DNA of 30,049 bases. It comes from a virus. Lineage: Duplodnaviria; Caudoviricetes. Of this stretch, positions 114 to 30,049 are shown in pieces (the first letter of the stretch is position 1; each line of letters opens with the position of its first letter). The DNA lies in IMG/VR virus record IMGVR_UViG_3300002966_000377, positions 1-30,049 of that record, one strand, 5' to 3'. A program made the translations under genes and the position numbers. The notes beneath the pieces were generated by a model. The model saw nothing but the letters and a program-made list of their open reading frames with translations. It did no database searches and was not told the origin of the DNA.

Positions 114-299
114 TTTCTCAAAAAAATGCAACGGAAATTATATTAACATCTGGGATTAAGCAGGACTATTTTGGATATATCGGGATTGCATTCTAAGTTA
201 TTGTCTTTTCTATATCTTTTAAAAATACATAAAAAAATTTTCAAACTGCAATTTTGCAATTTTATATTTTTTTTATAATCGTTGCATTTTTTTGAGAAA
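114..299. repeat. Perfect 20-bp inverted repeat TTTCTCAAAAAAATGCAACG (114-133 and 280-299), partial third copy at 352-366
   Basis: Read directly from the sequence. Confidence 0.9.
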
Positions 300-399
300 C
301 CCCACAGTTGGAATTTTTATAAAGAAGTTGTGAAAAATTTGTGAAGTTGTATCAAAAAAATGCAACACTTTTCCTGATGGCTGTCATATGTTTTATTCC

Positions 400-457
400 A
401 ATCTGCAATTTTTGCAGGTTGGAATATTTTGTGAAAATCTGCAATTTTTGCAGGTTG
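400..457. repeat. 22-bp direct repeat AATCTGCAATTTTTGCAGGTTG (400-421 and 436-457)
   Basis: Two identical copies 36 bp apart. The first lies within an imperfect hairpin at 394-426. A related CTGCAATTTTGCAG follows at 464-477. Confidence 0.9.
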
Positions 458-478
458 TTTACACTGCAATTTTGCAGA

Positions 479-1003
479 TTATCTTAAACTATCCACAACA
501 AGTTTAGCGTATTCTTTGGCTCCTAACGTTGTCAAATGCACGCCATCCCTTATAACAAACTGGGGATGGTTTTTGCTAAAATCATACCAATCAATTACTT
601 TTACGTTAGGATACTCTTTGATTGTCTTAAAATAGAGATTATTTACTTCATGCTTCCAAATATATTTGTTTGGAAGTTTAATCGTGCATAAATAAATCTT
701 TTTACCGTGTAAAATATTTATTAAACGGTTTAAATCGCTTGGTTTTACATATCCATTAGTTCCAAGTTCAATGACAAACACATTGTAATCTTTTATGTTT
801 ATACGTTTTAAGACATTAAACACACTGTAAAACTGTCTACCAACTCTGCCATTTACGTAGGTATCAGGTATCTCACGTTTTAAGTAAGGTTTTAATTCTA
901 AAGATATGCTGTCGCCAATGAAAGCCACATGGACAGGCTGAGACAAAGCTAAGCCTTGAAGCAGTGCAATCGTAGTAAAGAATAATTTAATATATTTAAA
1001 CAT
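479..1003 (-). CDS. Secreted SGNH/GDSL hydrolase resembling the OatA/YrhL C-terminal domain
   Basis: Signal peptide; blocks FIGDS, VGRQ, ELGTNG, DGVH. Confidence 0.85.
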   Translation of the reverse strand: MFKYIKLFFTTIALLQGLALSQPVHVAFIGDSISLELKPYLKREIPDTYVNGRVGRQFYSVFNVLKRINIKDYNVFVIELGTNGYVKPSDLNRLINILHGKKIYLCTIKLPNKYIWKHEVNNLYFKTIKEYPNVKVIDWYDFSKNHPQFVIRDGVHLTTLGAKEYAKLVVDSLR

Positions 1004-1009
1004 ATTCTA

Positions 1010-1639
1010 TCACCAAAAGTTTATATAGTCAACCGCACACATCGGCTTGTATTTTTGCCCCCACTCAAAGATATGGAGGGAATAAAGATAATTGATATCA
1101 CAAGCGCTTCTATACTCTACACATCTTCCCCATCTTCTCCAAACACAGACATAACCTCTGTGGTGCGGCTGTCCGAGATGCGCTTTGCAGTAATCATAAC
1201 AAGCCTTCCACTGATATGAGCCTGCACCCTTGCATTCCCAGATAACCCAATTCCCACCATTGTATCTTTGGTATGCCATCCAGAGCTTATGATGTGGAGT
1301 AGAATGTATAAGTGTTTTCAATACATAAGCGAAGCCATAGAAAGCGTCCATAGAGTATGGATCTTCCCAGTGTGGAAATAATGGTCTAATAAGCCAGTTT
1401 TCATCGACTGGCGTCAGTTGGAAATATCCCACACTACCCCATCCATCCCTTGAAGTAATCCACATGCAATTGCTTTCTTGTTCTGCAAGTGCTACGTTAT
1501 ACCACCACGGGAACTTTGGCGATATAATCTGCTTTGCTGCTTTTTCTATCGGCTTTTCAAGCCTTACACACCTCGGATTAACCCAAGCTAAAGACAATTG
1601 CGATATAAATAAGAAGCACAATACTATATATTTTGTCAT
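1010..1639 (-). CDS. Endolysin, SLT-type lytic transglycosylase with N-terminal signal sequence
   Basis: QES catalytic motif, GYFQL, YNGG; located in the lysis cassette. Confidence 0.85.
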   Translation of the reverse strand: MTKYIVLCFLFISQLSLAWVNPRCVRLEKPIEKAAKQIISPKFPWWYNVALAEQESNCMWITSRDGWGSVGYFQLTPVDENWLIRPLFPHWEDPYSMDAFYGFAYVLKTLIHSTPHHKLWMAYQRYNGGNWVIWECKGAGSYQWKACYDYCKAHLGQPHHRGYVCVWRRWGRCVEYRSACDINYLYSLHIFEWGQKYKPMCAVDYINFW

Positions 1640-1853
1640 ACGGATCCCTCCATTCTATATGTCCTACCTTCAATAAGCGAGTTGCGTAGTAGTAAACCAA
1701 ACCAGCGCTTGCCAGTGCTACCTTTCTTGCCAATGCAAACAGGAAAGCTCCATGTGAAATCGTAGTACTAAATGCTATAGCAAAAAACACTACAGCCAAG
1801 ACGATATCCAGCCAGTGCTTTTGCACGATGACTTTTAAGTGATTCATATTCAA
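1578..1853 (-). CDS. Putative holin
   Basis: 91 aa with about 3 hydrophobic segments, directly upstream of the endolysin. Confidence 0.7.
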   Translation of the reverse strand: MNMNHLKVIVQKHWLDIVLAVVFFAIAFSTTISHGAFLFALARKVALASAGLVYYYATRLLKVGHIEWRDPYDKIYSIVLLIYIAIVFSLG

Positions 1854-2110
1854 CCTCCTTTACACGTTTTTAAAACATCTCTTAAAAGCTTGTTTTCTCT
1901 TTGCAATCTAAACATGTAGTTCAACATTTTCTGCAATTTTTCAGTAATTGGCTCTTGTTTTTTTATGATGGGCTTTTTTGTATGTGGAATATTAGGCACA
2001 GGGCATCTCACAATCACTTCTTTAGTGATAGGCGGAAGCGTGATTGTTCTTGGTTGCATAGCACAGCTAAACAAAAGAAGGCTACTTGCTAAAATAATTA
2101 GACGCTTCAT
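1850..2110 (-). CDS. o-spanin (Rz1-like lipoprotein)
   Basis: Lipobox LLFSC, Pro-rich segment, overlaps the i-spanin candidate. Confidence 0.75.
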   Translation of the reverse strand: MKRLIILASSLLLFSCAMQPRTITLPPITKEVIVRCPVPNIPHTKKPIIKKQEPITEKLQKMLNYMFRLQRENKLLRDVLKTCKGG

Positions 2111-2438
2111 TTACCATCTCCTTTAAAGCTTTACACTGGTTATGCTCTTTTGGTATTTGGATTTGTGGTATTGGCGTAGTGGCTTCTTTAGCTATTACTG
2201 AGTATCGTTTAATAATCTGTTTTTTGTTTAACTGGCAATCATGTTTTATTTTGTCATATAAGTTTGCATAATAGGATATATAAGATTGCTCTTGTGTGAT
2301 TTGTTGTTTTTGAAGTAATATCACTTCGTTTAAATGTTTTATGTGATGAAAAGCATAAACATCAAACCCTAAAGCACATAATAGAGCAAATGCAATCCCT
2401 AATCTAATAAAAGTCCCTAAGCCTAACAATCCCATCAT
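2082..2438 (-). CDS. i-spanin (Rz-like)
   Basis: N-terminal TM segment followed by a coiled coil; adjacent to the lipoprotein. Confidence 0.7.
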   Translation of the reverse strand: MMGLLGLGTFIRLGIAFALLCALGFDVYAFHHIKHLNEVILLQKQQITQEQSYISYYANLYDKIKHDCQLNKKQIIKRYSVIAKEATTPIPQIQIPKEHNQCKALKEMVNEASNYFSK

Positions 2439-2800
2439 TTTCTATTCCAATGTGTCCAACCAAACAACCGCACTACATAATAAAAAGTGTAAGCCTTCCA
2501 TTTCTCTACACCTAACGCAATTTGAAGCTCAAGAAAGACTTTATCTGCTATATGTCTTGGATATTTCTTTGTGTAATAAAGGTAATCATGCACTACTGCC
2601 GCTTTGTTGAATTTGTCTTTCCATGTTAGGAACGGCATAAAGACTATTGGGATAGAAGCAAAATCAGTCTCAAAGCCTTCTGGAACATGTATCCATTCCC
2701 TTTCTTCTGGTATATCAGTGTAAGCCGAGAAAGGTTCAGCTAATCTCCATTTCGCACCGTTTGGTTCAAGTCTTACTATAAGCGGTGTAGTCAGCTTCAT
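2435..2800 (-). CDS. DUF1353 family protein
   Basis: VPxGFxTDFASIP, AAVVHDYLY, AD..F motifs. Confidence 0.85.
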   Translation of the reverse strand: MKLTTPLIVRLEPNGAKWRLAEPFSAYTDIPEEREWIHVPEGFETDFASIPIVFMPFLTWKDKFNKAAVVHDYLYYTKKYPRHIADKVFLELQIALGVEKWKAYTFYYVVRLFGWTHWNRK

Positions 2801-3375
2801 GGCACATTAGGGGGTGGAACGTTTATTGTGTAGGATGGCGTTGGCAAAGATGTTGCCGAGCTTATTTGCTGACTAATTGAATAGTATTGTTGTTTTACTT
2901 TGAATACAAAGTCTTGTCTATAACCTATCTTGAGTAGTTGCTCCAACCAATATCCGATTGTGGGATTGGTGTTGCTGTTAAATGACTGGCTCAGCGTTGA
3001 TAAAGCTTGAGTGTAAGAAACTCCCGATAAGACCTGTTGAGCAGTAGTTTGTCTTACCTGTGTTGTATTAATCCCAGCGTAAGTCAAATACGCTTCTCCG
3101 TTTGTTAAATCTGACATGTCAGAACGTTGCTTCCAGTCTGGGTAGTATTGGTAAATGTAATTCATTGTAGATTGTGAAAGCTGTTGTAAAGCTTGTTGTT
3201 GAGCTTCTGCTAATAACTCAGATTGTGTTTTAGTTCTAATAGTGCCAGACGCATAAACCACATCATCAGGAGAATTCACCGTAAAAGAAGTGTAAGACAC
3301 TCCTGGCGGAACTGCTTCAGGAGTTAATGCACAACATACAACACCATTACTGTTTAAATAAGCCCATACTTTCAT
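2797..3375 (-). CDS. Tail fibre-associated protein (assembly/chaperone-like)
   Basis: Translationally coupled downstream of the tail fibre; function inferred from position only. Confidence 0.5.
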   Translation of the reverse strand: MKVWAYLNSNGVVCCALTPEAVPPGVSYTSFTVNSPDDVVYASGTIRTKTQSELLAEAQQQALQQLSQSTMNYIYQYYPDWKQRSDMSDLTNGEAYLTYAGINTTQVRQTTAQQVLSGVSYTQALSTLSQSFNSNTNPTIGYWLEQLLKIGYRQDFVFKVKQQYYSISQQISSATSLPTPSYTINVPPPNVP

Positions 3376-4829
3376 GATATCCTCCTAACGATTATTGTCC
3401 CTGTAACAGGTCCTACAGGTGTATAACCACTCCCTACCAAACAGCCAAAAGACCCGAGCGAAGACCAGTGAGTTGATGTATCATTCCAAATACTGTTACC
3501 AATAGCCAGTCCTCCATTGTCACCGCCCATTCCTACAAGCTGTTTAGGGTATGAATAACCCCAATAGCAAGCGGTTGCTTTAAGCGTTATAGGCGGTGTA
3601 TCTGAGATTCCCATTTGTATATCAAGTACAAAAGATCCTGTTGATGTTGACCAAAAAGCAACAGTGTTTGTAGAAGACATCTCTACCATAGCAACGGAAA
3701 TACTGCTTCCATAGCTTGTATTGTTAGGGTATAACCAAAAAGCTCCATTAGCCCCGCTCCCCGTTGCAACTGAAAGAGTAAACTCGTATATAACTGGGGT
3801 AGTTGGTGAAGAAGGCTCAGGAACCGCTATATGAAGAGGTATTAATGTTTGACTACTAAAGCTAATTACGGCAACTTGCCCTGGCTGTAGAAGGTAATCA
3901 GCCGTTGCTGAAGTTAAATTTATAGGGTTTGCGTATCCATTGCCTACTCCTGGCGGGAAGACACTTGCTGGAAACTGTGCGTTTGAATTTAAAGGTAATA
4001 AAACATTAGGAGCAGGAGTTGCCGAAACCGTATACCCTCCAACGGAAGAAGCATTGACGGGCGGTATTACACTGGCTGGGAATTGTGTGTTTGAATTCAG
4101 CGGTAGCAACATATTCGGAGTAGGAGTAGCTGACGCATGAAAACCATCCACCATGTCAGCATTCAACGTGATGTTGAGCGTTCCGTTATTGAGCGGTATC
4201 TGTCCTGTAGCACTTCCTACAGAGTATCCGTCAAGCAATCCAGCATTAAACGGCTGCCACTGAGTCCCATCGTAAAACTCCGCAGGCTGTGTATCGCTTA
4301 CCCATATTTTGCCCGGATATAAATCCGTTGGCGTTGAACTTGAAAACTCAGGTCTTGCAGTGTTGACATCCTGAATTGTTGCAAGCAATACGCTATTGTC
4401 TATCACCGCCGTCACGCTTTGAGCGTTTGATACGACAGTGTAGATATCAATCACATCTTCTATCGTTGTCACGCCAGCGGCTGGGATAAAATCGGGATTT
4501 TGAGCATATGTAACTGCGTACAAAGTGTTTGGTGAGCTTGTAGTTTGTGCATATATACCTATCTCAGAAAGTAAGTATCCCAACGATAGCGAGCTGTTTG
4601 ATATGAGAAATCTTAGCCTTGCAGTTCCATCACCAACCACGCTCACACTCTGGATTGGCACCGTCTGGCTTGGATAAACCAGCGATGTCATGCTGGATGG
4701 GTTCATGGTGCTTGACCACGTGCCAGAGCCAAGCACTACTTGTGTAAACTGCAAAGTTTCACCAGATTGAGCTTGTGAAAGAAGGTTCAAGCCAGCTGTT
4801 GTTAGTATCGTACCATTAAAATCAGCCAT
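3372..4829 (-). CDS. Tail fibre protein (tail-collar type N-terminus)
   Basis: ILTTAGL...EIGIYA...LYAV N-terminal domain, NADMVDGFHA repeat motif, position after the gpI-like gene. Confidence 0.85.
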   Translation of the reverse strand: MADFNGTILTTAGLNLLSQAQSGETLQFTQVVLGSGTWSSTMNPSSMTSLVYPSQTVPIQSVSVVGDGTARLRFLISNSSLSLGYLLSEIGIYAQTTSSPNTLYAVTYAQNPDFIPAAGVTTIEDVIDIYTVVSNAQSVTAVIDNSVLLATIQDVNTARPEFSSSTPTDLYPGKIWVSDTQPAEFYDGTQWQPFNAGLLDGYSVGSATGQIPLNNGTLNITLNADMVDGFHASATPTPNMLLPLNSNTQFPASVIPPVNASSVGGYTVSATPAPNVLLPLNSNAQFPASVFPPGVGNGYANPINLTSATADYLLQPGQVAVISFSSQTLIPLHIAVPEPSSPTTPVIYEFTLSVATGSGANGAFWLYPNNTSYGSSISVAMVEMSSTNTVAFWSTSTGSFVLDIQMGISDTPPITLKATACYWGYSYPKQLVGMGGDNGGLAIGNSIWNDTSTHWSSLGSFGCLVGSGYTPVGPVTGTIIVRRIS

Positions 4830-5539
4830 TATGTACTACCCCCTTGAGTAGCTATTTGTATGTAGCTTGATGTCATCACAGCACCTGCGATGTAGAGATT
4901 TGCATTTTCAACGGTTTTTGGAAGATGCGTTCTGATTCTGTATTGTGAGCTTATCATGTTTGCCGAGCCTATATATGTGTTTGCATTGGCTATGTTTACA
5001 TCTGGCAGATGCGTTTGTATTCCGTAGTGTTTCCCATCATTAAACGCAGAGCCTATATATACATCATTTGTATATTCTCTATGAACTCCTATACTATCTA
5101 GCCACGAGCGAACATTTTTATATTCGTTTATTAAATTTGCGAGTTTTATATATGTTTCTTCATCAGATATAACAGTGTCAAGTAAGATTTTAAACATGTA
5201 AGGATTGCCACCATACTCAAACCATTCCTGCAATTCTGCAGTGATACCTAAGCTTTCAAACACTTGTTTAATTGCGTAGGGTGTGCCTTTGTATTTATGG
5301 AGCAGAAAGGCATTTTTAATCATGCTTATTTTTTGCTCTATCGGGGTAGCAAGCTCGTATCCCTCAATATGCAACTGCCAAGCTAACAAATCTAACAAGT
5401 TTTCATCTGTAATCTGGTCTATTCTTGGCAAAATTAAAGCGTTTATTATTTGATTTTGAATTTCTTCAAAGCTTGTATCAAACGTGTCAACGAGATATTG
5501 AAGCTCTTGAATACTGGAGGGTGTTAATTCCTTAATCAT
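4829..5539 (-). CDS. Tail protein, P2 gpI-like
   Basis: LLDLLAWQLH, HKYKGT, EWFEY.G.PY, YKNVRSWL. Confidence 0.9.
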   Translation of the reverse strand: MIKELTPSSIQELQYLVDTFDTSFEEIQNQIINALILPRIDQITDENLLDLLAWQLHIEGYELATPIEQKISMIKNAFLLHKYKGTPYAIKQVFESLGITAELQEWFEYGGNPYMFKILLDTVISDEETYIKLANLINEYKNVRSWLDSIGVHREYTNDVYIGSAFNDGKHYGIQTHLPDVNIANANTYIGSANMISSQYRIRTHLPKTVENANLYIAGAVMTSSYIQIATQGGST

Positions 5540-6635
5540 TTACCAAGCCTCCATAAACAACGTTGACGCTGTTTGCATATGCTATTTGCTGGATTGTCAG
5601 GGTTTGTTGCGTTGGTGCTGTTAGGTCTATCATGTAAGCCCCAGCGTCTCTTATTCTTGCTATCAATTGCTCTGGGAGTATATACCTTCCTATCTTGCTT
5701 TGAGTCCAGTTTATGAAATCTTGCACTGCTTGATTTACTGCATTTTGAATAATTGATACCTTAGCTGAATCTTTTTGATTTATGTAGTAAGTGACATTTA
5801 TGTTGTAATAAACAGGCGTTGGAGCTATTACAGAAACCTGATCTGTGAGGGGTCTAATGTGGTCTTGTGATAGAAAAGTAGCAACTGTGTTGATCATGTC
5901 TTGGTCTGGTATATTCCCGCCTGTAGTTGTGAATACGACAGTAACCTGTCCTGGGCTCGGCGAAAAAACTTCTACGTCCTCTATGTCTTGATGAGCTGTC
6001 AGGGTCCAGTATTTGTAAGCTTTGCCTGGTCCCGCTGTGCTAAACCTTTCCATACTGAGCCTGATTCTTTGTCTGAATCTGTCATCTGTTTCTGGATCTG
6101 TGCCATACATGCTTGTGGTAGTGTTTACTACGCTTGTTACGTATGGCACTGTATCCACGAGCTGGTTTATTTGTCCAGCTACATATCCATTCCCGATAGA
6201 GCCTGCTACTTCACAAACAGCAGGAATACTTACAGATGTGCTTCCAGCTGTTATTGTCCCATCCTGCAAAGTTGCAAAAAAGAGCTGTCCATCAGGCGTC
6301 GCTCTTGTTCCAGTGGGTATTACGACATTAAAAGCCAACGGTTGGTTGATAGAAAATTGAAGTGTCGTTTGTGCTGGCTGGGCTGGTAGTCTTGTGATGC
6401 CATAGAATTCTGCTAATGCATCAAGATTGCTTCCGCTGGCATATGCCAGTAGGTTTTGTTTCCCTGTCTCATTGATTGCAACAGCCAACAAAGCCGTTGC
6501 GTAGGTTTGTAAGTCTACAAGTAAACGATCGGGGTCTGCTGGATATAGTGTTCTATTTGTAATGTTTTGATAAGCATCTATAAGAAGCTCTTGGTAGTAT
6601 GTTGGGTCTGTATTGATAAAGCTTACATCAGCCAT
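5532..6635 (-). CDS. Baseplate J-like protein
   Basis: A.GSNLD.LA, G.D.ETDD.FR.RI, STAGP..AY, RPLTD.V.V. Confidence 0.92.
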   Translation of the reverse strand: MADVSFINTDPTYYQELLIDAYQNITNRTLYPADPDRLLVDLQTYATALLAVAINETGKQNLLAYASGSNLDALAEFYGITRLPAQPAQTTLQFSINQPLAFNVVIPTGTRATPDGQLFFATLQDGTITAGSTSVSIPAVCEVAGSIGNGYVAGQINQLVDTVPYVTSVVNTTTSMYGTDPETDDRFRQRIRLSMERFSTAGPGKAYKYWTLTAHQDIEDVEVFSPSPGQVTVVFTTTGGNIPDQDMINTVATFLSQDHIRPLTDQVSVIAPTPVYYNINVTYYINQKDSAKVSIIQNAVNQAVQDFINWTQSKIGRYILPEQLIARIRDAGAYMIDLTAPTQQTLTIQQIAYANSVNVVYGGLVND

Positions 6636-6937
6636 AAGGGCACCGTGATGATGTCTCCAGTATCAAGCAATTGCACTTCTATTGAGACCTTTATTCCTGC
6701 ATATGCTTTCTGAATCAATACACTCTTCACTTTTACTCTGGGCTCAAATCTTTCTATAGCATCTGTTATTTCAGCCTTGATTTTGCCAATTGTGATTGCT
6801 GTCAATGGTTGATCTATGAACTGCCATACATCAGAGTCAAAGTCGGGTCTATGTATATCAGTCCCTTTCTGAGTTGTGAGTATGACTCTGATATTTTGCA
6901 TGACACTTTTGACAGTGTCTTTTTCTACAACTTGCAT
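6623..6937 (-). CDS. Baseplate wedge GpW/gp25-like
   Basis: ILTT.KG...RPDF, AIERFEPRV. Confidence 0.9.
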   Translation of the reverse strand: MQVVEKDTVKSVMQNIRVILTTQKGTDIHRPDFDSDVWQFIDQPLTAITIGKIKAEITDAIERFEPRVKVKSVLIQKAYAGIKVSIEVQLLDTGDIITVPLWLM

Positions 6938-6969
6938 GTATTTATTTTGTTTATAAAAAGCTCATAAAA

Positions 6970-6985
6970 CCAGCAAAGATTTCAA
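6970..6985 (-). promoter_or_regulatory. Late-module motif copy 1 (TTGAAATCTTTGCTGG)
   Basis: 32 bp before ATG 6937; hexamer CAAAAT 20 bp downstream; its TGA is the MuF stop codon. Confidence 0.75.
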
Positions 6986-8292
6986 AGGACACGTATTAAT
7001 GCTTTATTTTGGCTTTTATCATCCTCTATATCATCTTTTAGCTTATGAAAAGCTTTTATGCCCAGGTGATCATCTGAAGAGATCACTGCTTTGTCTCCTT
7101 TGATAAAGATGTAATGAGTTTCAAATCCAGTGGCTCCTTGTATTCGCTGGATGTAAACCTTGTCTGGATTCCTAATAACTTCATGAGAAAGTCTTTCGTA
7201 TTGATCTATGTTTTCAGCACCCACTTCTTTACCGTGCTTCTCAAACTGTTTTGCCAGCCTTTTTACTTCTACATCATAGTGATTCGCTTCTCTTCTCCAA
7301 TCGCTCCCCAGATGCGCTCTTATCCTGTTTGCAATCTCTTCAGGTTTGAGGGCTCTGTATTCATTTTCAAGTTGAGTTTGCATTGCTTCTTGCTGCAAAT
7401 TTGCAGGTCTTATTGCTCTTTCAACTGTGACAGGTATTCTTTCTATTTCTGTTAGTGCTTCAACAGTGCATCGGCAACTTGGATGAGCTGGTGGAAACTT
7501 CGTTGGCATACTGGATGACGACATAGATCGCAACATAGGTAATGGTGTGCTCGTTGCAAATGGTCTGAAAGATGGCAAGCTTTGGGGGTCTGCATCAATG
7601 AGATCTATTGTACGTATTGCATCATCTGTTTGAAAGATCCTCCCGTCCATCGCATTGCAGTAGGGACACGTAAGTCTATCTCCTACAGCACTCCACTGGT
7701 AGTATGTTATCTCTGCCTTTTCAAACGCTCTTATACGTGCTGAGTTTTTAAGCTGGTTGTAGGTTGTGTCTAGTATTTGTCTTACTTTATATTGTGTTTT
7801 TTGTTTGAGAAATTGCCCAAATCTATTTACAAACTCTCTAATGCCTTTTTGCCCTCTTCCGATGGGATGTCCTTCCGTCAAATAGTATTGGTTCATCCAC
7901 TTAATAACCTCAAGCCGTAGATGTGTATCTCCTTGAAAGAAACCCCCCATGTAGAAATCAGCCAGTTTTTCTGCACATTGTATCGTCCATATATCCGCTG
8001 AGCCAAGCTCAACATCATGCAAATGTGGAACTGCTTCTTTTTGCACCTCTTTATAGATTTTTTCAAACTCTTTTGACAAGAAGGCTTTTGCTTCGGTCGG
8101 TAGGTTCATTTTTTCCTGCAATTTTGCAAAAATAAAACTTTGGAACTGCTGAAAAGAAACAAAATATTTTGCATACCTAAAAGCGTCTTCTAAGACGTGA
8201 TGTAGTCTTTCAAGCATTTGAGGCAATACTACGCTTACAAGCCTGTTTATTTCTTCATTGCCTCTGATGTCCCAGTCGTTTTCATGCCCCAT
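6982..8292 (-). CDS. MuF-family minor head protein with C-terminal extension
   Basis: W.AVGD.LTCPYC..MDG and PPAHPSCRC MuF motifs, followed by about 155 extra residues. Confidence 0.85.
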   Translation of the reverse strand: MGHENDWDIRGNEEINRLVSVVLPQMLERLHHVLEDAFRYAKYFVSFQQFQSFIFAKLQEKMNLPTEAKAFLSKEFEKIYKEVQKEAVPHLHDVELGSADIWTIQCAEKLADFYMGGFFQGDTHLRLEVIKWMNQYYLTEGHPIGRGQKGIREFVNRFGQFLKQKTQYKVRQILDTTYNQLKNSARIRAFEKAEITYYQWSAVGDRLTCPYCNAMDGRIFQTDDAIRTIDLIDADPQSLPSFRPFATSTPLPMLRSMSSSSMPTKFPPAHPSCRCTVEALTEIERIPVTVERAIRPANLQQEAMQTQLENEYRALKPEEIANRIRAHLGSDWRREANHYDVEVKRLAKQFEKHGKEVGAENIDQYERLSHEVIRNPDKVYIQRIQGATGFETHYIFIKGDKAVISSDDHLGIKAFHKLKDDIEDDKSQNKALIRVL

Positions 8293-19244: not shown

Positions 19245-19258
19245 AAAGGAGGTAAACA

Positions 19259-21324: not shown

Positions 21325-21325
21325 G

Positions 21326-21505: not shown

Positions 21506-21517
21506 GGAGATAATAAA

Positions 21518-22954
21518 ATGAAAAGGAGAGAAGTACGAATAAAAGCTTATGAACTGTTCTTACAAGGATATTCCCTCAGACAAATACAAACCATACTCAA
21601 CAAAGTGGGCATCAAAGCCCACTTTTCTACTATCAAATACTGGATTGATCAAGAAATCCAGATACAAAAAGAGAAAAGTATACAAATACCGCAAGAATTA
21701 AAACAGCGAATTAGAGATTTATTACTTCTAAAAAATAAAGAAAAAGGAAAATCAAGGTTTTTGTCTTTTAGGCAAATTTACAAACTAATAGAAATGGATT
21801 TGCAAATGATAGGGATAACTTCCTATCAGAGCTTCAACAGAATTATCAAAGACTTTATAAATCAAGAATGGGGGAGCTATGAAAAATTACAACAGAGAAG
21901 ATTAGATAAGAGGGAAGCATCTAAGCATATAGTAAGCAAGGGCAAGCTATCAAGAAATAAAGCAGAATGGGAAATAGATGCGACTGGATATTCTTACAAT
22001 GGGAAGCACTATCACATATTCATAGCGAGAGAAAGATATTCAGGCTGTTTTCTCGATGCTTTTTATAAAGAAGTAAAAGAAGATACAAACACACAATATT
22101 ACAACAGAGCTTTTAGCACGTTAGACATTGCTTTATATCTTATGAGCTTGTTTGAAAAATACGGCTTGCCTGAAAAAATCATAACTGACAATGAAGCAAT
22201 ACTCAAAACAGAACTTATTACCAAAGGATTAGAAAAATTAAATATTAGACATAGAAATACAATCCCAGGAAGACCTAACCAAAAGCTAATAGAAAGAGCC
22301 TTCCGAGACCTAAAAGACAAGCTGAGATACTACACCCAAACACATAGCGAGTTTGCAGATGCTTTGAAGGTATCTCTTGAGATGTACAACAGAGAAGAAC
22401 ACAAATTTGAGCATCTCAACGAGCCAGTGATACCTGAAATTTTGCACCAAACAATACAATACAGGCAAGCCAACATAGATGAAATTAGGCTTGCTTTTAG
22501 AGAAAGGTTTATTCGTGTTGTAAGAAACAATAGCATAACAATAGACAATCTTGTTTATGAGTTCTACTATCCCGTTGAAAGATATGGAGAATATGGAAGA
22601 AAAGCCAAAGCTCCAGTAGTGGTGTGTTATAGGGATATACAAGATGCAACAAAATTAGAAGTTTGGGATGAGAAAGAACAAGAAAGGCTTGGATATGCTC
22701 AGCTCATTTCTAAAGATGTTCCAAGCCTTGAAACAATCGATATAAAAGAGCAAAAGAATAAAGAGAAAAGAATATCTAAAAGAAAGGCAAAGCTAACAGA
22801 AGAGATGGAAAAGATGAGACAAGAAGAGATAAAAGAAAATAGAGAGATATTAGACATTACAAGCATCTTTGGAACTGAGGGGGAGGAAATAAAACAAGAA
22901 GAATCAAAGCAAGAAGAAGAAATTGACATTTTAAAACTTTTTGGAGGTACATAA
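21518..22954 (+). CDS. DDE transposase (MuA-like, rve core)
   Basis: WEIDAT, GLP..I.TDN, K.IER.F catalytic triad; N-terminal HTH. Confidence 0.9.
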   Translation: MKRREVRIKAYELFLQGYSLRQIQTILNKVGIKAHFSTIKYWIDQEIQIQKEKSIQIPQELKQRIRDLLLLKNKEKGKSRFLSFRQIYKLIEMDLQMIGITSYQSFNRIIKDFINQEWGSYEKLQQRRLDKREASKHIVSKGKLSRNKAEWEIDATGYSYNGKHYHIFIARERYSGCFLDAFYKEVKEDTNTQYYNRAFSTLDIALYLMSLFEKYGLPEKIITDNEAILKTELITKGLEKLNIRHRNTIPGRPNQKLIERAFRDLKDKLRYYTQTHSEFADALKVSLEMYNREEHKFEHLNEPVIPEILHQTIQYRQANIDEIRLAFRERFIRVVRNNSITIDNLVYEFYYPVERYGEYGRKAKAPVVVCYRDIQDATKLEVWDEKEQERLGYAQLISKDVPSLETIDIKEQKNKEKRISKRKAKLTEEMEKMRQEEIKENREILDITSIFGTEGEEIKQEESKQEEEIDILKLFGGT

Positions 22955-22955
22955 G

Positions 22956-23645
22956 ATGATACACACAGAAGAAACAATCATCAGCACAATCTCTGCCCTA
23001 AAGAGGATTAGGGAAGAGCAGAAAAGCCCAGTCCACGCCATACTCTACGGCTCATGGGGAACTGGTAAGACATTCTCATCACAAAAAATTGTATCACACT
23101 ACGATGATGTCTTCTACATCAAGATCCCAGATGGGGACATCTCAAAGGGAAGACTGTATAGACTGATTGGCTTGGCTCTACGTTCTGGTGTAAGGCATAC
23201 ATGGGAAGGCACTTTAAACATGATAAAGTACCACTTAGACTACCTCAAGCTAAAGCCAATCTTTATACTGGATGAGAGCCAAAGAATACTTTCAAAATAT
23301 CATATTCTGAATGAGCTTAAAGACTTATCAGAAGACCTGGAGTTAAATTTTTCCTATATCTTTTTAGGAGATCATACAATACCAAGAATATTGGCAACGC
23401 ATCCGCACTCAATACATAAAAGAATAGTTATCACAAGGGAGCTCCAACCAATTACAGAGAACACAATAGACACATTAGCAAAAGAACTAAAAGTAGAAGC
23501 AGATGTAAAAGAAATTTTTGAAATATCAAAAAAGAAAGGCTGGACTACCATTGATGTGGCTTTTATACTGCAAACTTGCAGACAAGCAAAACAGCCAGCG
23601 AAGAAAGACATCATAGAAAAAGTAGCAGTAGCGTTAGGGAGGTAA
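22956..23645 (+). CDS. Transposition AAA+ ATPase (MuB-like)
   Basis: GSWGTGKT Walker A, FILDE Walker B; directly after the transposase. Confidence 0.88.
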   Translation: MIHTEETIISTISALKRIREEQKSPVHAILYGSWGTGKTFSSQKIVSHYDDVFYIKIPDGDISKGRLYRLIGLALRSGVRHTWEGTLNMIKYHLDYLKLKPIFILDESQRILSKYHILNELKDLSEDLELNFSYIFLGDHTIPRILATHPHSIHKRIVITRELQPITENTIDTLAKELKVEADVKEIFEISKKKGWTTIDVAFILQTCRQAKQPAKKDIIEKVAVALGR

Positions 23646-23647
23646 TC

Positions 23648-24166
23648 ATGACAGAAGGACAGATTTGGCAAGTGATGCTTAGGTTGAAAATATTTACGCC
23701 TTGGATGGTGTTAAACGAGTTAAAAGCACCATCCTACTTGAAAAGCATCTATAAGGAGAAAATCAGAAGCATTATAGCTGGACAGTTGAAAAATGGCATT
23801 TTGGTGGAATATAACCAAGAGCCACCAGTGTTTGGCTTGCCTAATCAGGATATAGAGACGATCAAAAGAACATGTGGAGTATGTGGGAAAAGATTTATCC
23901 CTGTGAAATCAAACGATACATACTGCAGTGAGGAATGCGAAAAGGAATATAGGAAGCAATACTTACACAAAAGACATAGACAGCAGGGAATGGCAATTCA
24001 TCGCAGATACACAAAAGAAGAAGAAAAACTCATATATGACATTCTGAGCGTATATGGTTGCAAATCTGCAGTTTTGCAGGAACTCTCCAAACGCCTCGGA
24101 AGACATCCAGAGGCGATAAAGTCAAAATACAAACAGATGACGAAAAAGGAGGCATCTCATGAATAA
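23648..24166 (+). CDS. Zn-finger plus HTH/Myb-like protein (probable start ATG 23648)
   Basis: CGVCGK.F...YCSEEC; YT.EEE...LSKRLGRH..AIKSK. Confidence 0.65.
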   Translation: MTEGQIWQVMLRLKIFTPWMVLNELKAPSYLKSIYKEKIRSIIAGQLKNGILVEYNQEPPVFGLPNQDIETIKRTCGVCGKRFIPVKSNDTYCSEECEKEYRKQYLHKRHRQQGMAIHRRYTKEEEKLIYDILSVYGCKSAVLQELSKRLGRHPEAIKSKYKQMTKKEASHE

Positions 24167-24653
24167 CAGACAGATTTTAAAGAAACTTGAAAAGTTTGAT
24201 GAGCTTTTCAAAAACAAACGCTTTAAAGATGCGATAGATGTGATACATGAACTCAGAGCAAGATTGCAAGAAGAAATAGAAAAAGAAGAGCAGCGGTCAG
24301 GCTATGTGAAAGAGTTGCAACATCTCATGGGCTGGTATTTGAACCTCTGGAATCAAAAACCCCCAGAGATGTTTAAGTACTCGGTAGAGTATAGAGCAAT
24401 CATTGGTAAACATTTCAAAGATTTGATACAAATCTACGTACGAAACAATGAAGATATAGAACAACTCAAGAAAGATTACGAGAACTTCAAAAAATCCAAA
24501 AGAGAATGGAATGGGATATTGCAATTTAGGAACCACTTACCAAACATAAAGGGCAAGTCAGACAATAAAGAATGGTGCAGTCCTGAAAACCAAAGAGGCA
24601 AGGACTACTACTTGAAAGACTGGGTGAAGGATGATGATGATGTACCGTGGTGA
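24159..24653 (+). CDS. Hypothetical protein, possible replication-initiator partner
   Basis: Coupled upstream of the DnaC-like ATPase; acidic DDDDVPW tail. Confidence 0.55.
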   Translation: MNNRQILKKLEKFDELFKNKRFKDAIDVIHELRARLQEEIEKEEQRSGYVKELQHLMGWYLNLWNQKPPEMFKYSVEYRAIIGKHFKDLIQIYVRNNEDIEQLKKDYENFKKSKREWNGILQFRNHLPNIKGKSDNKEWCSPENQRGKDYYLKDWVKDDDDVPW

Positions 24654-25309
24654 GGTGGGATATGAAAATCTACAAAAACATTGAACAGATTAGAAAAGAT
24701 TTTCCACACAGCACAATTCTTGAAGATGAAGCTGGGTTTTGGGTTTGTAAAGAATCGCAACCGGGATATATTCAGAAAGTAGACAGATATCTCAAGCCAC
24801 GCACAAAAACACAGATCAAAGATATCCTAAGTTCAGGACATTTTCCAGATAGACTAATAGATGTTGCTTTGTTTAAAATCAAAGAAACAGAAAGTATAAA
24901 GAAAATAAGAGAATCAGAGAAAAACGGGGCTGTTTTGGAAGGAAGAGCTGGTGTAGGAAAATCTGTTGCTTGCACTTGGAAAATAGCAAAGCTGGTGTAT
25001 TGGTGGAAAGTGCAGAATCCACTTTATATATCCTCTGTGCTGTTTGATACGAAGATATTTGAAACCTTCCAAGAACACGATGCATATCTTATAGATGATT
25101 TATTACCAAATTTAAAGGATATCAAAATTGATTTAATAACTCAAATTATCTATTACGCAGAATCTAAGAACATTCCTTTATACATCACCACAAACTCAAT
25201 AGAAAGTTTCAATCAGTTTCCAGAGCCTTTGATGTCAAGGCTTAAATCTTATTGTGAATATATTAAGATTAAACAAACTAAAGACTTAAGAGTTGAATCT
25301 GTATGTTGA
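24647..25309 (+). CDS. DnaC/IstB-like ATPase
   Basis: G.AGVGKS, LIDDL, ITTN, SRL. Confidence 0.75.
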   Translation: MVRWDMKIYKNIEQIRKDFPHSTILEDEAGFWVCKESQPGYIQKVDRYLKPRTKTQIKDILSSGHFPDRLIDVALFKIKETESIKKIRESEKNGAVLEGRAGVGKSVACTWKIAKLVYWWKVQNPLYISSVLFDTKIFETFQEHDAYLIDDLLPNLKDIKIDLITQIIYYAESKNIPLYITTNSIESFNQFPEPLMSRLKSYCEYIKIKQTKDLRVESVC

Positions 25310-25318
25310 AATTGTCGC

Positions 25319-25347
25319 TTGTCTTTTTTCTACAAACTGCGTATAAT
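25319..25347 (+). promoter_or_regulatory. sigma70-type promoter for the HTH gene
   Basis: TTGTCT, 17 bp spacer, TATAAT. Confidence 0.65.
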
Positions 25348-25358
25348 AAATCTCAGAT

Positions 25359-25601
25359 ATGGATAGATTCCTAACGGTTTTTGAAGTAGCAACGCTCTTT
25401 AGAGTATCCGACAGGACAATTTACACTTGGATAGATGAGGGAGTTATCCGTTGTATAAAAATAAAAGACAAATCAGCAGTAAGAATACCAGCCTCAGAAA
25501 TAGAAAGACTGGTTCAAGAAGTTCTTGAAGTACCACCAACAAAACTATCCGCACAAAGAAAAAAACGTCTTTTAGAAAATCTCATCAAATCTCTTAGATA
25601 A
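25359..25601 (+). CDS. MerR/excisionase-like HTH (HTH_17) protein, candidate late activator
   Basis: LTV.EVA..FRVS.RTIY.WI..G...RIP..E. Confidence 0.8.
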   Translation: MDRFLTVFEVATLFRVSDRTIYTWIDEGVIRCIKIKDKSAVRIPASEIERLVQEVLEVPPTKLSAQRKKRLLENLIKSLR

Positions 25602-25609
25602 TCTTCTCT

Positions 25610-25625
25610 TTGAAACCTTTGCTGG
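25610..25625 (+). promoter_or_regulatory. Late-module motif copy 5 (TTGAAACCTTTGCTGG)
   Basis: 32 bp before GTG 25658; hexamer CATAAT. Confidence 0.8.
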
Positions 25626-25657
25626 TTTTTTAAACTCAATAAAAACATAATAACAGT

Positions 25658-26383
25658 GTGATTACTGTAGAGACGCTGTTGACAACTGAGAATTTGAGCG
25701 AAGAACAAGATTTTGTAGAAGTAAGCGTTGTTGCTCTTTCTTCTACGTGCGTGCAACGAAAATATGGCAATCTTTGCTTCCCAGATGATCTTTTAGCAAA
25801 AAAAGCAAAGACTCTTATAGGAAAGCCTGTCTTATTAGATCACAAATGGGAAGTAGGTTCTGTAATAGGAGTTGTAAAAGATGCGTATTTTCAGAATGGC
25901 AGGATAATTGCAAAATTGCAGATAGTAAAACATGGGAATGAAAAGCTCATAAATCTTTTGAAAATGGAACCAAGACCCATCTCAGATGTAAGCGTTGGAA
26001 TGACATTAGAAACAGAAAAAGAAGAAGACAATAAATACGTAGTAAAAGACCTCACATTCAAAGAGCTTTCTTTTGTTTTTGAAGGAGCAGATAAGAACGC
26101 AAAAGTGTTGTTTGAAGCAGAAGAGAACAAAGACACAGACTACGCACGTTGGTGGGAATCTCAAGAGCTCAGACAAAAAGCACCACGGGACTATTTCTTA
26201 GATCCAACGAATAGAAAATACCCTTACAGGACTTGGGAAGGGCAAATATCATGTGCAAGGCTACGAGCTGCAATCAGTCTTGCAGCTCTTCATGGAGATT
26301 CTCGTGTAGAGGCACGAGCAAGGAATTTGTATGAAAAACACTGTAAAGGAGGTAATAAAGATGGCCAAGAAGAAAGAAGTTAA
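25658..26383 (+). CDS. Prohead protease with C-terminal extension
   Basis: GKPVLLDH...IG.V, VSVG, ELSFV..GAD..A. Confidence 0.8.
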   Translation: MITVETLLTTENLSEEQDFVEVSVVALSSTCVQRKYGNLCFPDDLLAKKAKTLIGKPVLLDHKWEVGSVIGVVKDAYFQNGRIIAKLQIVKHGNEKLINLLKMEPRPISDVSVGMTLETEKEEDNKYVVKDLTFKELSFVFEGADKNAKVLFEAEENKDTDYARWWESQELRQKAPRDYFLDPTNRKYPYRTWEGQISCARLRAAISLAALHGDSRVEARARNLYEKHCKGGNKDGQEERS

Positions 26384-26408
26384 AAGACCTAAACCAAAAG
26401 GCAAGTAA
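26361..26408 (+). CDS. Possible 15-aa basic peptide MAKKKEVKRPKPKGK
   Basis: AGGAGGT RBS about 7 nt upstream; fills the gap before the scaffold gene. Confidence 0.5.
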   Translation: MAKKKEVKRPKPKGK

Positions 26409-26426
26409 AACTAAGGAGGTAAAAAT

Positions 26427-26837
26427 ATGTTGCAAAATATTGAGACACTGTCAAAAGAAGAGTTGATGGACGCTGTAAGAGCGTTGGAAGTGAGGCTTTC
26501 AGCTCTTGAAAAAGAGAATCAAGAGCTTAGAGAGCTTGCAGAAACGGGGAAAAAATATATTGAGCATCTACGTGCTGAAGCTACAAAGTTTGTGAAAGTC
26601 GTAGAAGGTGAAAAATCAGCACTTCTCAAGCTCATAGAAAAAGCTGATGTAGACACACTCAAGGATATGGTCGATGACTATAGAGCAAAAGCTTCTGAAA
26701 AATTGCAATCTAAGAGCGTTCAAATACCACCAGAACAATCTCAACCAGGCACAGTAAAGAAAGAAGACATAGAGAAAATGAGCTTTGAGGAATTGAAAGA
26801 ATTGGGCGAGAAACTTAAAAGGGAGGTAATGAGATAA
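26427..26837 (+). CDS. Capsid scaffolding protein
   Basis: Coiled coil, located between protease and capsid. Confidence 0.7.
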   Translation: MLQNIETLSKEELMDAVRALEVRLSALEKENQELRELAETGKKYIEHLRAEATKFVKVVEGEKSALLKLIEKADVDTLKDMVDDYRAKASEKLQSKSVQIPPEQSQPGTVKKEDIEKMSFEELKELGEKLKREVMR

Positions 26838-27744: not shown

Positions 27745-27903
27745 ATGAAATTGTTTGTTAAAGAATCAACATCGGTATGGATAAACGGTAAAGAATACAA
27801 AGTGGCGGCTGGTATACAAGAAGTAGATGACAACATAGCTCTTATCTTGCTTGAAGCAAAACTCGCTGAAGAAGTAAAAGAAGATGACAAGAAGAAGAAA
27901 TGA
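27745..27903 (+). CDS. 52-aa small virion-associated protein (not in ORF track)
   Basis: MKLFVKESTSVWINGKEYKVAAG...; ATGA overlap with the next gene. Confidence 0.75.
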   Translation: MKLFVKESTSVWINGKEYKVAAGIQEVDDNIALILLEAKLAEEVKEDDKKKK

Positions 27904-28238
27904 TACAGGTAACTGATTTGCAGGCTTTTGTAAACGATAGCTCATATCCAACTACAATTTTGCAGAATTGTATCAATCTTGCCGTAGATAGATTGATGAA
28001 TTTATTAAACATATCTGACGCCTCCGAAATACCCGATACGCCAGAAGTCAATAAAGCCCTCTTACTTCTGGCGGCTTCTGAGCTTGCTACGAATGTGAAT
28101 ATGTACTGGTCAAAAGCAGAAGGAAGGCAAATCATGAACGTCAAACAGATGATAGCAGAAGTAGAAAGAATCTTGAACCTTGCGCCTCAAGCGAGTATCG
28201 TATGGCAAACACTATCGAGCAGCTCGAGCAATTCTTAA
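27900..28238 (+). CDS. Head-tail adaptor-like protein
   Basis: Size, helical pattern and position after the capsid gene. Confidence 0.6.
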   Translation: MIQVTDLQAFVNDSSYPTTILQNCINLAVDRLMNLLNISDASEIPDTPEVNKALLLLAASELATNVNMYWSKAEGRQIMNVKQMIAEVERILNLAPQASIVWQTLSSSSSNS

Positions 28239-28642
28239 AAGAGCTTCCTGCAAAAGTGCAAGAAGCAGCGAATATCACATTGCAGAAGTCTGCTTTAAAA
28301 ATACAAAAAGATATTAGAGATATTTTTAAAACACAAGGAGCATCTCAAGGAATTGAATGGGCTCCTCTTACAAAACAATATTTGAAAGAGAAAATTAAGA
28401 AAGGATATTCAGAAAAGAAATTAATCAGGACATCTACATTAATGCAGTCTTGGACGTGGAGATTGCAACCATTGATGGCGGTGGTGGGAACAGAAGTACC
28501 ATACGCCATATATAACGAAATGGGAACATATAAAATGCCAGCGAGACCTTTTGCAAAACCCGTGAAAGAATCGTTTGAAAAACAGCAAATAGCAGAAAAG
28601 ATGTTTGTAAAAACGCTTGATGAGGTATTGAAAGGTGTTTGA
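28202..28642 (+). CDS. Virion morphogenesis protein (Mu gpG/P2 gpS-like)
   Basis: WAPL, LIRT..L..S, VGT..PYA...E.GT..MPARPF. Confidence 0.88.
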   Translation: MANTIEQLEQFLKELPAKVQEAANITLQKSALKIQKDIRDIFKTQGASQGIEWAPLTKQYLKEKIKKGYSEKKLIRTSTLMQSWTWRLQPLMAVVGTEVPYAIYNEMGTYKMPARPFAKPVKESFEKQQIAEKMFVKTLDEVLKGV

Positions 28643-29069
28643 TACATTAGAGACACAAATTATTCAAACATTGACAACAGCGGGAATAAACGCTCAGCCG
28701 TGGAGCGGTAAAGCTGATGAGCTATTCTTTAGACCCAATTACACCCCCTTCGTACGAATAATCATTGAGAGTGTAGATTTTCAGCCGTTATCTCCATACT
28801 CCTACGAAACAAAGTTTCAATTTAGTGCTCTTTTATTTTTTAAAGCCTTGAGGGAGGAGGCAGAGGGAGCATATCCCTTGATTACTAACATTATCAACGC
28901 ACTTGTCCAACAAACAGACTATAACGTAGAGCCTGTAAAGGTTGATCTTTTAGCACACGAATCAGGGAGTTTTGTTTACCGTTTAATATTCAAAGCAAAC
29001 GGCAGATATGTTGTGCCGTACACTGATGATGTAATTGTAAGTCAAATCAATGTGGAGGCAATGCCATGA
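28635..29069 (+). CDS. Tail terminator-like protein (Mu gp37-like)
   Basis: Position and size, GAY.L motif. Confidence 0.55.
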   Translation: MFDTLETQIIQTLTTAGINAQPWSGKADELFFRPNYTPFVRIIIESVDFQPLSPYSYETKFQFSALLFFKALREEAEGAYPLITNIINALVQQTDYNVEPVKVDLLAHESGSFVYRLIFKANGRYVVPYTDDVIVSQINVEAMP

Positions 29070-29251
29070 AGTATAAGGTGAAAATCACGTATCCAACAAT
29101 GGTATGGATTGCTGGGAAGAGCTATCCTCTTTATCCAGATCGTGAAGTTGAACTGCCAGATATCAACAGCGACCATTTGAGAACACTGATAGGTCTTGGA
29201 TATTTAGAACCAGAACAAGAACAAGATCACGATCACGAGAAGGAGGTGTGA
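29066..29251 (+). CDS. Small protein preceding the sheath gene
   Basis: 61 aa, L...GYLE motif, coupled translation. Confidence 0.7.
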   Translation: MKYKVKITYPTMVWIAGKSYPLYPDREVELPDINSDHLRTLIGLGYLEPEQEQDHDHEKEV

Positions 29252-29252
29252 T

Positions 29253-30049
29253 ATGCCAGCAAGCTATCTTCACGGTATTGAAACGATAGAACTAACCACG
29301 GGACCAATTCCAGTTCAACAAGTAAGCTCTGCTATTGTGTTTTTGGTTGGTACTGCACCAGTGCAGGATACAATCCCAGCTGGAATGTCATCAACAGCTT
29401 GGTATCAACAAATAGTCAACGAGCCCGTCTTAGTCTTGAGCAAAAGTGATGCTGTGACCAATTTCGGACCACCAACGCCAGGATACACGATACCTTACGC
29501 ACTTGATGCAATATTCGATCAAGGCGGGACTACTTGTGTGGTTGTGAATGTCTTCAATCCAGTATCAAACACAAACTCTGCGGGTCTACCAGACCCAACC
29601 ACGGTCACGGATGCTCAAGTGATTGGTGGCATAGATCCAACCACTGGGCTTAGAACAGGGCTTGAAATAATAGATCAATTGTATACGCAGTTTGGTTTTA
29701 CCGCAAAATTGATGCTTGCTCCGTTTTTCTGTGAGAATCAAGACGTTGCCGCTGCTATGATAGCAAAAGCTGAAAATCATAGAGCATTTGCACTTATAGA
29801 TGCTCCAGTAGGACTTACTACACAACAAGTTATCGAAGCCCGAGGCGCTGGTGGACAGCTCAATACATCTTCGTACAGGACGATAATTTGCTATCCGCAC
29901 TTGAAAGTTTACGATGAAGCCTTGAACGCACCAAGACTCGAACCGTTTTCTCAACGGCTGGCTGGTGTGATAGCAAGAGTAGACAATGATTATGGGTATT
30001 GGTGGTCTCCATCGAACCACGAGATAGAAAACATAATAGGTATAGAACG
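29253..30049 (+). CDS. Tail sheath protein (P2 FI-like), partial; not in ORF track
   Basis: AGGAGG RBS; MPASYLHGIETIE...VGTAP...YTIPYAL.AI...RTGL...GYWWSPSN; runs off the window edge. Confidence 0.92.
   Translation, partial: MPASYLHGIETIELTTGPIPVQQVSSAIVFLVGTAPVQDTIPAGMSSTAWYQQIVNEPVLVLSKSDAVTNFGPPTPGYTIPYALDAIFDQGGTTCVVVNVFNPVSNTNSAGLPDPTTVTDAQVIGGIDPTTGLRTGLEIIDQLYTQFGFTAKLMLAPFFCENQDVAAAMIAKAENHRAFALIDAPVGLTTQQVIEARGAGGQLNTSSYRTIICYPHLKVYDEALNAPRLEPFSQRLAGVIARVDNDYGYWWSPSNHEIENIIGIE

Follow-up and report, generated by a model that had tools for sequence, protein, structure and literature searches.

Dispersed palindromes in a transposable hot-spring phage as candidate loading sites of an orphan ParB-type protein with two recognition helices

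What reads a short palindrome scattered through unrelated genes of a phage, and what does it do there? The question is raised by IMG/VR virus record IMGVR_UViG_3300002966_000377, a single record of 30,049 bases (the window in what follows), which holds a transposable phage from a hot spring whose right end is missing. A reading made from the letters alone (the sequence-only reading) had noticed 21 copies of TGCA-N4-TGCA in the window and had proposed that they are bound by the product of a phage gene, a ParB-type protein with two helix-turn-helix (HTH) motifs, so as to mark the phage genome as self, for instance for target immunity in transposition, synapsis of the ends, silencing, or packaging. 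The analysis reported here finds that the 21 palindromes are phage-specific DNA sites under selection. As to their reader, we lean, if only slightly, towards the explanation that they are common loading sites of the phage's orphan ParB-type clamp, recognized by the first of its two recognition helices (helix 1), and that these clamps coat the genome during transposition. The sequence-only reading had missed the existence of two tiers of sites, a copy inside the ParB gene, and arrays of foreign-type sites at the phage ends.

The observation on which everything else rests is the excess of TGCA-N4-TGCA, which we call the N4 or core-only site. All 21 starts previously listed are exact copies (247..29365; starts 247, 465, 1223, 5229, 6265, 7394, 8117, 10124, 12062, 13452, 14043, 14544, 16915, 17745, 19033, 23569, 24059, 24067, 25909, 28249, and 29354), and 1.25 pairs are expected by chance from the 194 TGCA of the window, where the rough estimate had been about one pair or fewer per 30 kb. 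When spacers of 0-30 bases were counted, every spacer other than 4 bases gave at most five copies, and among spaced 4-mer dyads the motif ranks first in the window (P ~7e-19). Seventeen sites are wholly coding, against 1.43 +/- 1.09 (maximum 7) in 500 synonymous-codon shuffles, and the flanks are mostly C and G as described (consensus (C)TGCA-ATTT-TGCA(G), with C in 16/21 and G in 11/21). The density is a property of the phage and not of its host: in 121 genomes from the order to which G001 belongs (G001, named Aquifex sp., is the genome that holds L005; such handles for records are ours), N4 sites have a median of 8 and a maximum of 26 per Mb versus about 700 per Mb in the window, and the high host-chromosome density of a host-wide iterated motif of the HIP1 or uptake-sequence type was not found. 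The host-like genome G065 (1.6 Mb) contains 13 N4, 26 N5, and 12 N6 forms, and the 30.9 kb of a related prophage in G083 hold 20 sites, whereas 69 kb of its flanks hold 2. In homologous genes, codon identity is 210/325 at site halves versus 1203/3731 elsewhere, a synonymous-position comparison in which, as in the other site-conservation counts, the genes share ancestry and are not independent. Site 6265 is kept in 11/11 homologues, down to 60% protein identity, site 13452 in 13/15, and two N4 sites inside a gene for a winged HTH (wHTH)-zinc finger protein in 10/25 and 14/25, while sites such as 7394 and 19033 are lineage-specific and some sites have been gained and lost.

The only well-tolerated variant of the N4 site has one TGAA half. 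There are 13 such sites in the window versus 1.6 at other spacers (432..26707; starts 432, 957, 1932, 4372, 4750, 5714, 10132, 10225, 10922, 17592, 22435, 26281, and 26696), 12 of them coding versus 2.0 +/- 1.3 in 60 shuffles, and 108 versus 22 over 16 records; with this class included the window total is 34. A CGCA half is a weaker second variant (30 versus 8.5 in the 16 records). Two of four near-matches proposed earlier, at 1931 and 22434, fall in the enriched TGAA class, whereas that at 27952 has a TACA half, which is not enriched, and that at 9909 has three mismatches. The N5 forms at 404 and 440 were confirmed; another one, at 8346, lacks arms and is probably a chance match. Other features that had been remarked upon lose part or all of their weight. 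The gap over the accessory block is not significant (P 0.21 with 21 sites, 0.08 with 34), and although three window sites do lie 0-2 nt past stop codons, adjacency to stops is not a rule, since it applies to 5 of 17 intergenic sites in the 16 records, three of them from the window. The cluster at the left end belongs to a different class of site, that of N5 cores with arms. Across the 16 records 203 of 220 sites lie in coding sequence, and the intergenic share (17/220 versus a 6% background) reveals no preference for intergenic DNA. Even spacing of sites was not significant in the window (P 0.16-0.22) and was nominally so in 5/13 records, which we do not rely on, and none of 446 flanks of N4 sites, pooled over related records, carries own-type arms.

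The candidate reader is an orphan ParB-fold protein of 319 residues (20365..21324, + strand) with an N-terminal ParB/Noc/KorB fold, two HTHs, and a helical C-terminal part. Its model (mean predicted local distance difference test score 73.6) matches the folds of ParB, Noc, and KorB, the best matches being ParB/Noc (7bnr, 7nfu, and 6sdk; E ~3e-7) with KorB 8qa8/8qa9 among the matches, while the Pfam ParB_N match (E 0.0012) is weaker than the curated cut-off. Box I and GxxR motifs are present in the N-terminal ParB fold, the nucleotide-pocket residues P22, R23, G63, R66, and N99 are conserved in 93-95 of 96 homologues, and the PR, GxxR, and N positions align with Noc. Named relatives come from Sulfurihydrogenibium, Thermocrinis, and Persephonella. 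Orphan ParB-fold proteins are common in prophages and mostly uncharacterized, and their nucleotide specificity cannot be predicted from sequence or models (PMC12704722). Membership of a partition (ParABS) system was considered and rejected: none of the 50 open reading frames scanned in this record, which lacks the right end, matches a ParA family, and the protein sequence has no LG[RK]GL ParA-binding motif. The codons of helix 1 (residues 133-141; 20761..20787, + strand), the predicted reader of the core half-site, are near invariant, whereas helix 2 (residues 178-185; 20896..20919, + strand), the predicted arm reader, is hypervariable, with 52 forms in 96 homologues.

One link between this protein and the motif is a palindrome within its own gene. 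Ten bases past the tryptophan codon that closes helix 2 starts a 33-bp palindrome (20930..20962) composed of an N5 core with one TGAA half and arms TGGCG..CGCCA, which we call the own-type armed site. The peptide over it is of three kinds in 61, 18, and 3 of the 96 homologues, with 14 others, and since these kinds are one DNA sequence translated in two frames and in either orientation, the core is conserved as DNA rather than as peptide. Parsing for both helices succeeded in 61 of 76 distinct ParB gene segments, and 53 of these have a TGCA-type core, giving 46 distinct helix-plus-site combinations; the remaining 8 parsed segments have another core or are cut short. In the 46 distinct sites, arm positions 6-10 are variable (1.5-1.85 bits) and 80-100% complementary, versus 30-37% in shuffles, and arm similarity tracks helix-2 similarity (rho 0.49) and not that of the N-terminal domain (0.10). 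With residues counted back from the tryptophan, the covarying pairs are residue -6 and arm positions 9-10, residue -5 and position 8, and residue -1 and position 6 (z ~10-11 over 41 distinct helices), values that are inflated because helix and arms are physically linked. These residues are the classical positions 1, 2, and 6 of the HTH recognition helix, as in 434 repressor. The correspondence is that of a code: at -6, Gln goes with TA (24/24) and Lys with GT (14/14); at -5, Lys goes with G (10/10), Gln with C (10/10), and Ser is split 10 to 10; at -1, Asp goes with G (18/18) and Arg with C (19/20). When trained on helices sharing at most 3/7 residues, it predicts arm position 6 in 65/70 cases and the other bases in 52/74, 48/74, and 39/60. 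ParB genes of L030, L033, L045, and L071 have tandem or duplicated in-gene sites, with two arm types in L030 and L033.

Applying this arm code to helix 1 connects the two tiers of sites. With L071 excluded, it predicts C (4/6), T (4/6), G (7/8), any base, and A (10/12), and this C-T-G-x-A is the dispersed half-site. In L071 itself, helix 2 is identical to helix 1 and the arms are CTGAA. For distant first helices, the residues at -5 and -1 agree in most cases with the core of the gene in question (L006, L008, and L086; L095, L096, and L098; L010 and L089; L077 and L078; L076), and TGAA is the tolerated variant in dispersed as well as in in-gene cores.

Armed sites also occur outside the ParB gene, chiefly at phage ends, where the layout is repeated end motifs, then an N4 site, then armed N5 sites. 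At the left end of the window lie a foreign-type full site (394..426, arms TATTC..GAATA), which agrees with the site inside the ParB gene of L018/L056 throughout the core and for a further 13 and 11 bases on its two sides, and a hybrid full site (430..462) with one arm of L049/L044 type and the other of L042 type. Armed sites of several or foreign types were also found in G005, G007, G008, G015, G083, L145, L173, and L237, and own-type copies outside the gene in G005, G008, G010, G017, L089, and L008; own types are included among the end armed sites of G005, G008, and G010, and in G008 and G010 the own-type copy lies beside the early promoter region. A scan of the viral collection with the 15-base N5 core found 122 loci, of which the majority are unrelated and match by chance or through repeat proteins; among the 122, 11 have an arm complementarity of 4 or 5 and three are new end arrays (L145, L173, and L237). 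Beyond the arms, end copies and in-gene sites still have flanking sequence in common (25 and 27 bases in L145), a sign that armed end sites were copied from ParB genes, and in hybrid sites the crossover is in the core.

Does the dispersed motif follow ParB from phage to phage? Among records of at least 10 kb with a visible ParB gene (shorter or ParB-less records were excluded), an N4 excess, taken as Poisson P < 0.001, is found in 23/27 records with a TGCA-core ParB versus 0/14 with another or no clear core, a contrast for which the Fisher value overstates the association because the 27 and 14 records represent only a few lineages. In prophage G031 the cores in the gene and at both ends are of TGA type, and there is no TGCA excess; instead it has 7 TGAA-N4 sites versus 1.7 +/- 1.1 (maximum 6 in 60 shuffles). 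In distant relatives, dispersed versions of other cores are not significant in G127a, G127b, G033, G064, and G082 and are weak in L089/L287. Other DNA-binding proteins are less constant than the motif: phages with an N4 excess differ from one another in CI, in Ner, in both HTHs of the transposase, and in the excisionase-like HTH, and the end motif differs between groups while N4 is unchanged. Packaging proteins were rejected as readers, since G003, G011, G014, and G018 have an N4 excess yet no match to the terminase, portal, or capsid of the window in the stretch examined. A packaging function, which the sequence-only reading had listed, is disfavoured, as the motif persists in phages whose morphogenesis module is a different one. 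The assignment to ParB thus gains support from the core in the ParB gene, a helix code that predicts the half-site, an excess that tracks the ParB core type, and the variability of the other HTHs. Two other iterated palindromes deserve mention. L088, which is not a Mu-type element and whose ParB is distant, carries about six copies of another dispersed palindrome, TTAACCTTG-N12-CAAGGTTAA (~500-780 and 12889-13380), and in G203 (C1, 25785-45085) the octamer GGAGCTCC occurs 24 times versus 1.5 expected and may be a host-wide iterated palindrome.

Several observations, besides the shared lineages and the physical linkage already mentioned, weigh against ParB as the reader of the dispersed sites. 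G020, G021, and L066, one lineage, share the core and helix 1, yet each contains a single N4 site (0.4-0.6 expected), and for none of the cores tested are dispersed sites present in this lineage; in G022 the count is no more than 2 despite a TGCA-core ParB; the earlier proposal of the ParB-HTH protein as reader therefore has strong comparative support with this lineage as an exception to it. G020, G021, L066, and L086 are ~95% identical overall but have different helix blocks, and in L026/L028 helix-1 DNA is 89-92% identical to that of the enriched phage L027, whereas the N-terminal domain is 65% identical; because helix-1 identity exceeds N-terminal identity, the helix blocks of the G020/G021/L066 lineage look imported. 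Identity of the transposase and AAA proteins divides the records by presence or absence of an N4 excess at least as well as ParB does, and G127a, a relative of G031, and distant relatives have in-gene sites with no significant dispersed excess. The code has its own misfits: Gln at -6 in the first helices of the G023/G024/G026 group and of L084 does not go with TA, L005 has no fitting palindrome, and Arg at -1 in G031 predicts C where its dispersed sites mostly have A or T. Finally, the dispersed spacer is 4 and the in-gene spacer 5, and no own-type site was seen outside the ParB gene in the window, of which the right end is missing.

Taking both sides together, comparison of genes and sites makes it very probable that ParB reads the armed sites and probable that it reads the N4 sites. 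Bound as a dimer, ParB would contact the inner half-sites (C)TG(C/A)A through helix 1 and the arms, which lie 6-10 bases further out, through helix 2. The N4 sites, which have only the core, would be general loading sites common to the whole clade, whereas armed N5 sites, which need a matching helix 2, would act as private addresses. The helix-2 codons and the address, ~10-30 bases apart, would pass from phage to phage as a unit, and the address would also be seeded in copies at the ends and sometimes in the cI leader. Expressed early, the protein may form a sliding clamp, dependent on a nucleotide, by which phage DNA is marked as a single domain with the ends as its borders, a domain that would aid pairing of the ends and keep out the phage's own transposase (self-insertion immunity). 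Function is the least certain part of this scheme: even granting binding, we put a genome coat at a little below an even chance. It is favoured over silencing because the ParB gene lies just before the transposase gene, because sites reach the phage ends regardless of promoters, and because Mu needs such a domain (PMC2837660). A broader proposal, which we hold only tentatively, is that these are self-addressed two-helix ParB proteins, with helix 1 on a clade-wide core and helix 2 on a private address, that they are swapped as cassettes and comprise at least 41 natural specificities, and that phage ends collect the addresses of other phages as arrays.

Four other explanations compete with the ParB coat. 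ParB could read both classes of site and have a mainly transcriptional job, as a KorB- or stoperator-like silencer or timer, with armed sites acting in the cI leader and in the ParB gene and core sites serving as roadblocks or as loading points for long-range repression. An own-type armed site lies ~25-55 bases upstream of the cI start in G008 and at the same place in G010 (where cI was not detected), and L089 has a second copy 2.8 kb upstream; moreover, KorB slides from distal operators to repress (PMC11790492), and mycobacteriophage repressors with two DNA-binding domains halt elongation at genome-wide sites (PMC9283540). We nevertheless regard a silencer as rather unlikely, as the window has no armed site between cI and Ner, cI has candidate operators of its own, the core sites lack the intergenic preference discussed above, and the ParB gene is in the early lytic operon, so that its product would presumably not be made in a lysogen. 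A different division of labour, in which ParB reads armed N5 sites only and the N4 sites belong to the transposase/AAA pair, the wHTH-zinc finger protein, or the excisionase-like HTH, would account for the lineage with a ParB core and no N4 excess and for the tracking by transposase and AAA identity. It would also suit the N4 site that lies just inside the end motifs at several ends, the two conserved sites in the wHTH-zinc finger gene, and the recognition helix of the window's excisionase-like protein, which is almost equal to ParB helix 1. It is unlikely all the same: transposase HTHs and end motif vary among enriched phages and N4 does not, excisionase-like helices differ in G003, G016, G018, G019, and G023, a separate late-gene motif (TGAAAYCTTTGCTKG) suits that protein better, and N4 and N5 cores share a single tolerated change.

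The two remaining explanations dispense with a dedicated reader. If the palindromes were recombination seeds or relics of copying, offering short homologies to a RecT-like protein rather than binding sites, one would understand why end copies share up to 25 and 27 bases past the arms in L145 and why hybrids cross over in the core, and copying or recombination probably does explain the spread of armed sites. As an account of the palindromes themselves it is very improbable, leaving unexplained the residue-to-base code, the arm complementarity, and the synonymous-position conservation in essential genes. That we are looking at a host-wide motif, codon bias, or a restriction-related composition effect has next to no chance of being correct; several 4-bp palindromes are indeed depleted in the window and TGCA is not, but codon shuffles, host genomes, and the sharp boundary of the G083 prophage refute it.

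The genetic setting of the ParB gene is that of a Mu-type phage, with a DDE transposase, a MuB-like ATPase, repeated end motifs, and Mu-type head genes, as well as a contractile tail; no target duplication was identified. The window begins with a host tRNA-Ser(TGA) gene (12..98, + strand); it matches host-like G065 at 100% over 1-98, and because identity ceases there we place the phage junction at base 98. Three TCAAAAAAATGCAAC end motifs (118-132, 281-295 inverted, and 352-366), common to the ends of close relatives, are likely transposase sites. Proximity to tRNA genes recurs among these transposable prophages (window 98-120; G083:C1 ~818490; the start of G015; G127:C17 171; G064:C1 ~1755020; G023 12270; G031:C1 ~40070; G127:C4 86): the end motif lies ~10-20 bases past the tRNA-Ser 3' end in six (in G015, only the last bases of the tRNA are present) and ~40 bases ahead of tRNA-Leu in two. 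This is unusual in a Mu-like DDE element and suggests either tRNA-directed target choice or a strong survival bias. Directly 3' of the ParB gene lie the genes for the DDE transposase and MuB-like AAA ATPase (21518..23645, + strand), and between ParB and transposase is a gene for a 59-residue HTH protein (21326-21505), a copy of the first HTH of the transposase (54% identity over 54 residues), detected in the closest group of relatives only and possibly a regulator of the transposase. Upstream, a RecT-like annealing protein (19259..19993, + strand), which was not found in every relative, is a candidate agent of the block swaps and of site copying. The wHTH-zinc finger protein (23576-24166) and the excisionase-like HTH protein (25359-25601), whose recognition helix resembles ParB helix 1, lie further on.

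Other features touch on regulation and on variation within the group. Around the divergent promoters of cI and Ner (~18440-18510) are three or four ACGAT-n-ATCG-like repeats, the candidate CI operators. The motif TGAAAYCTTTGCTKG stands shortly 5' of the first genes of late operons (6970, 12207, 14669, and 15076, all on the - strand, and 25611 on the + strand), with variants at like positions in at least 15 related records; it is a candidate late-activator site, its reader perhaps the excisionase-like HTH. A low-GC accessory block (14681-16781) contains DUF2513, DUF4411 (PIN-like), and M78 peptidase-HTH genes resembling a toxin-antitoxin or defence pair. In G007, G008, and G009, head, packaging, and tail gene blocks are shuffled and inverted with respect to the window, though these relatives are otherwise close. 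Contigs of four sequencing runs were compared with the ParB region, the sequence of which was confirmed in two further runs, and none of these contigs shows a helix swap there; one of the runs may be that from which the window derives, and junctions of the left end were not seen in the runs. Short contigs of run X5 at window 19900-21700 are phage-like pieces joined to repeated flanks, presumably clustered regularly interspaced short palindromic repeats (CRISPR), which suggests that hosts target this phage group.

How does this system relate to those already described? It works like KorB/OB or BisD/bisS, and on the features tested it falls outside ParABS, KorB-type, and stoperator systems. KorB of RK2 is likewise a ParB-fold protein acting from palindromic sites on its own element (PMC11790492), and several palindromic operators, as predicted here for ParB, are dispersed over the phage. 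However, KorB has a single HTH and works with a ParA-type partner and with KorA, which locks the clamp (PMC11790492), whereas the phage, a transposable one, has two HTHs, no ParA, two tiers of sites, and an in-gene address; no KorA-type match was found in a scan of the open reading frames of the window. ParB/parS and Noc/NBS provide the best fold matches and the aligned PR, GxxR, and N positions, and Noc uses many dispersed sites without ParA. Unlike in these proteins, specificity in the phage family changes wholesale between close relatives by block swaps, and the armed site is one base longer. BisD of ICEclc is an orphan ParB-like cytidine triphosphate (CTP) clamp of a mobile element that loads at in-gene palindromes and spreads over tens of kb (PMC12409273), but it has two sites, described in inrR and ssb rather than in bisD, and is a transcription activator with BisC (PMC12409273). 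Stoperators of cluster A mycobacteriophages are also many and genome-wide, with a reader that has two DNA-binding domains and with diverging specificities, but they are asymmetric and are bound by a monomeric immunity repressor with no ParB fold (PMC9283540); in the phage, sites are palindromic, CI is a separate gene, and CI helices vary among phages that share the motif. Mu, too, organizes its genome as a domain protected from self-insertion with the aid of specific sequences, but the model proposed for it involves one central gyrase site, host nucleoid proteins, and MuB, and no ParB-type protein or dispersed palindrome (PMC2837660). Searches of a literature library that omits most subscription papers gave no description of this ParB family, of a code in which two helices read core and arms, or of arrays of foreign-type sites at phage ends.

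In the ParB family described here, nature has paired dozens of helices with their sites according to a code that can be read position by position, so that the evolution of specificity becomes directly testable and the target of a new member predictable from its gene. If the coat model is true, it would be a sequence-specific answer to the problem of how a transposable phage marks itself, a question left open for Mu (PMC2837660). Moreover, if phage ends do collect the addresses of other phages, the end of one phage could be bound by the ParB of a rival or a helper, and the foreign-address arrays would then be either a record of past types or a device for phage-to-phage recognition at the transposition step.

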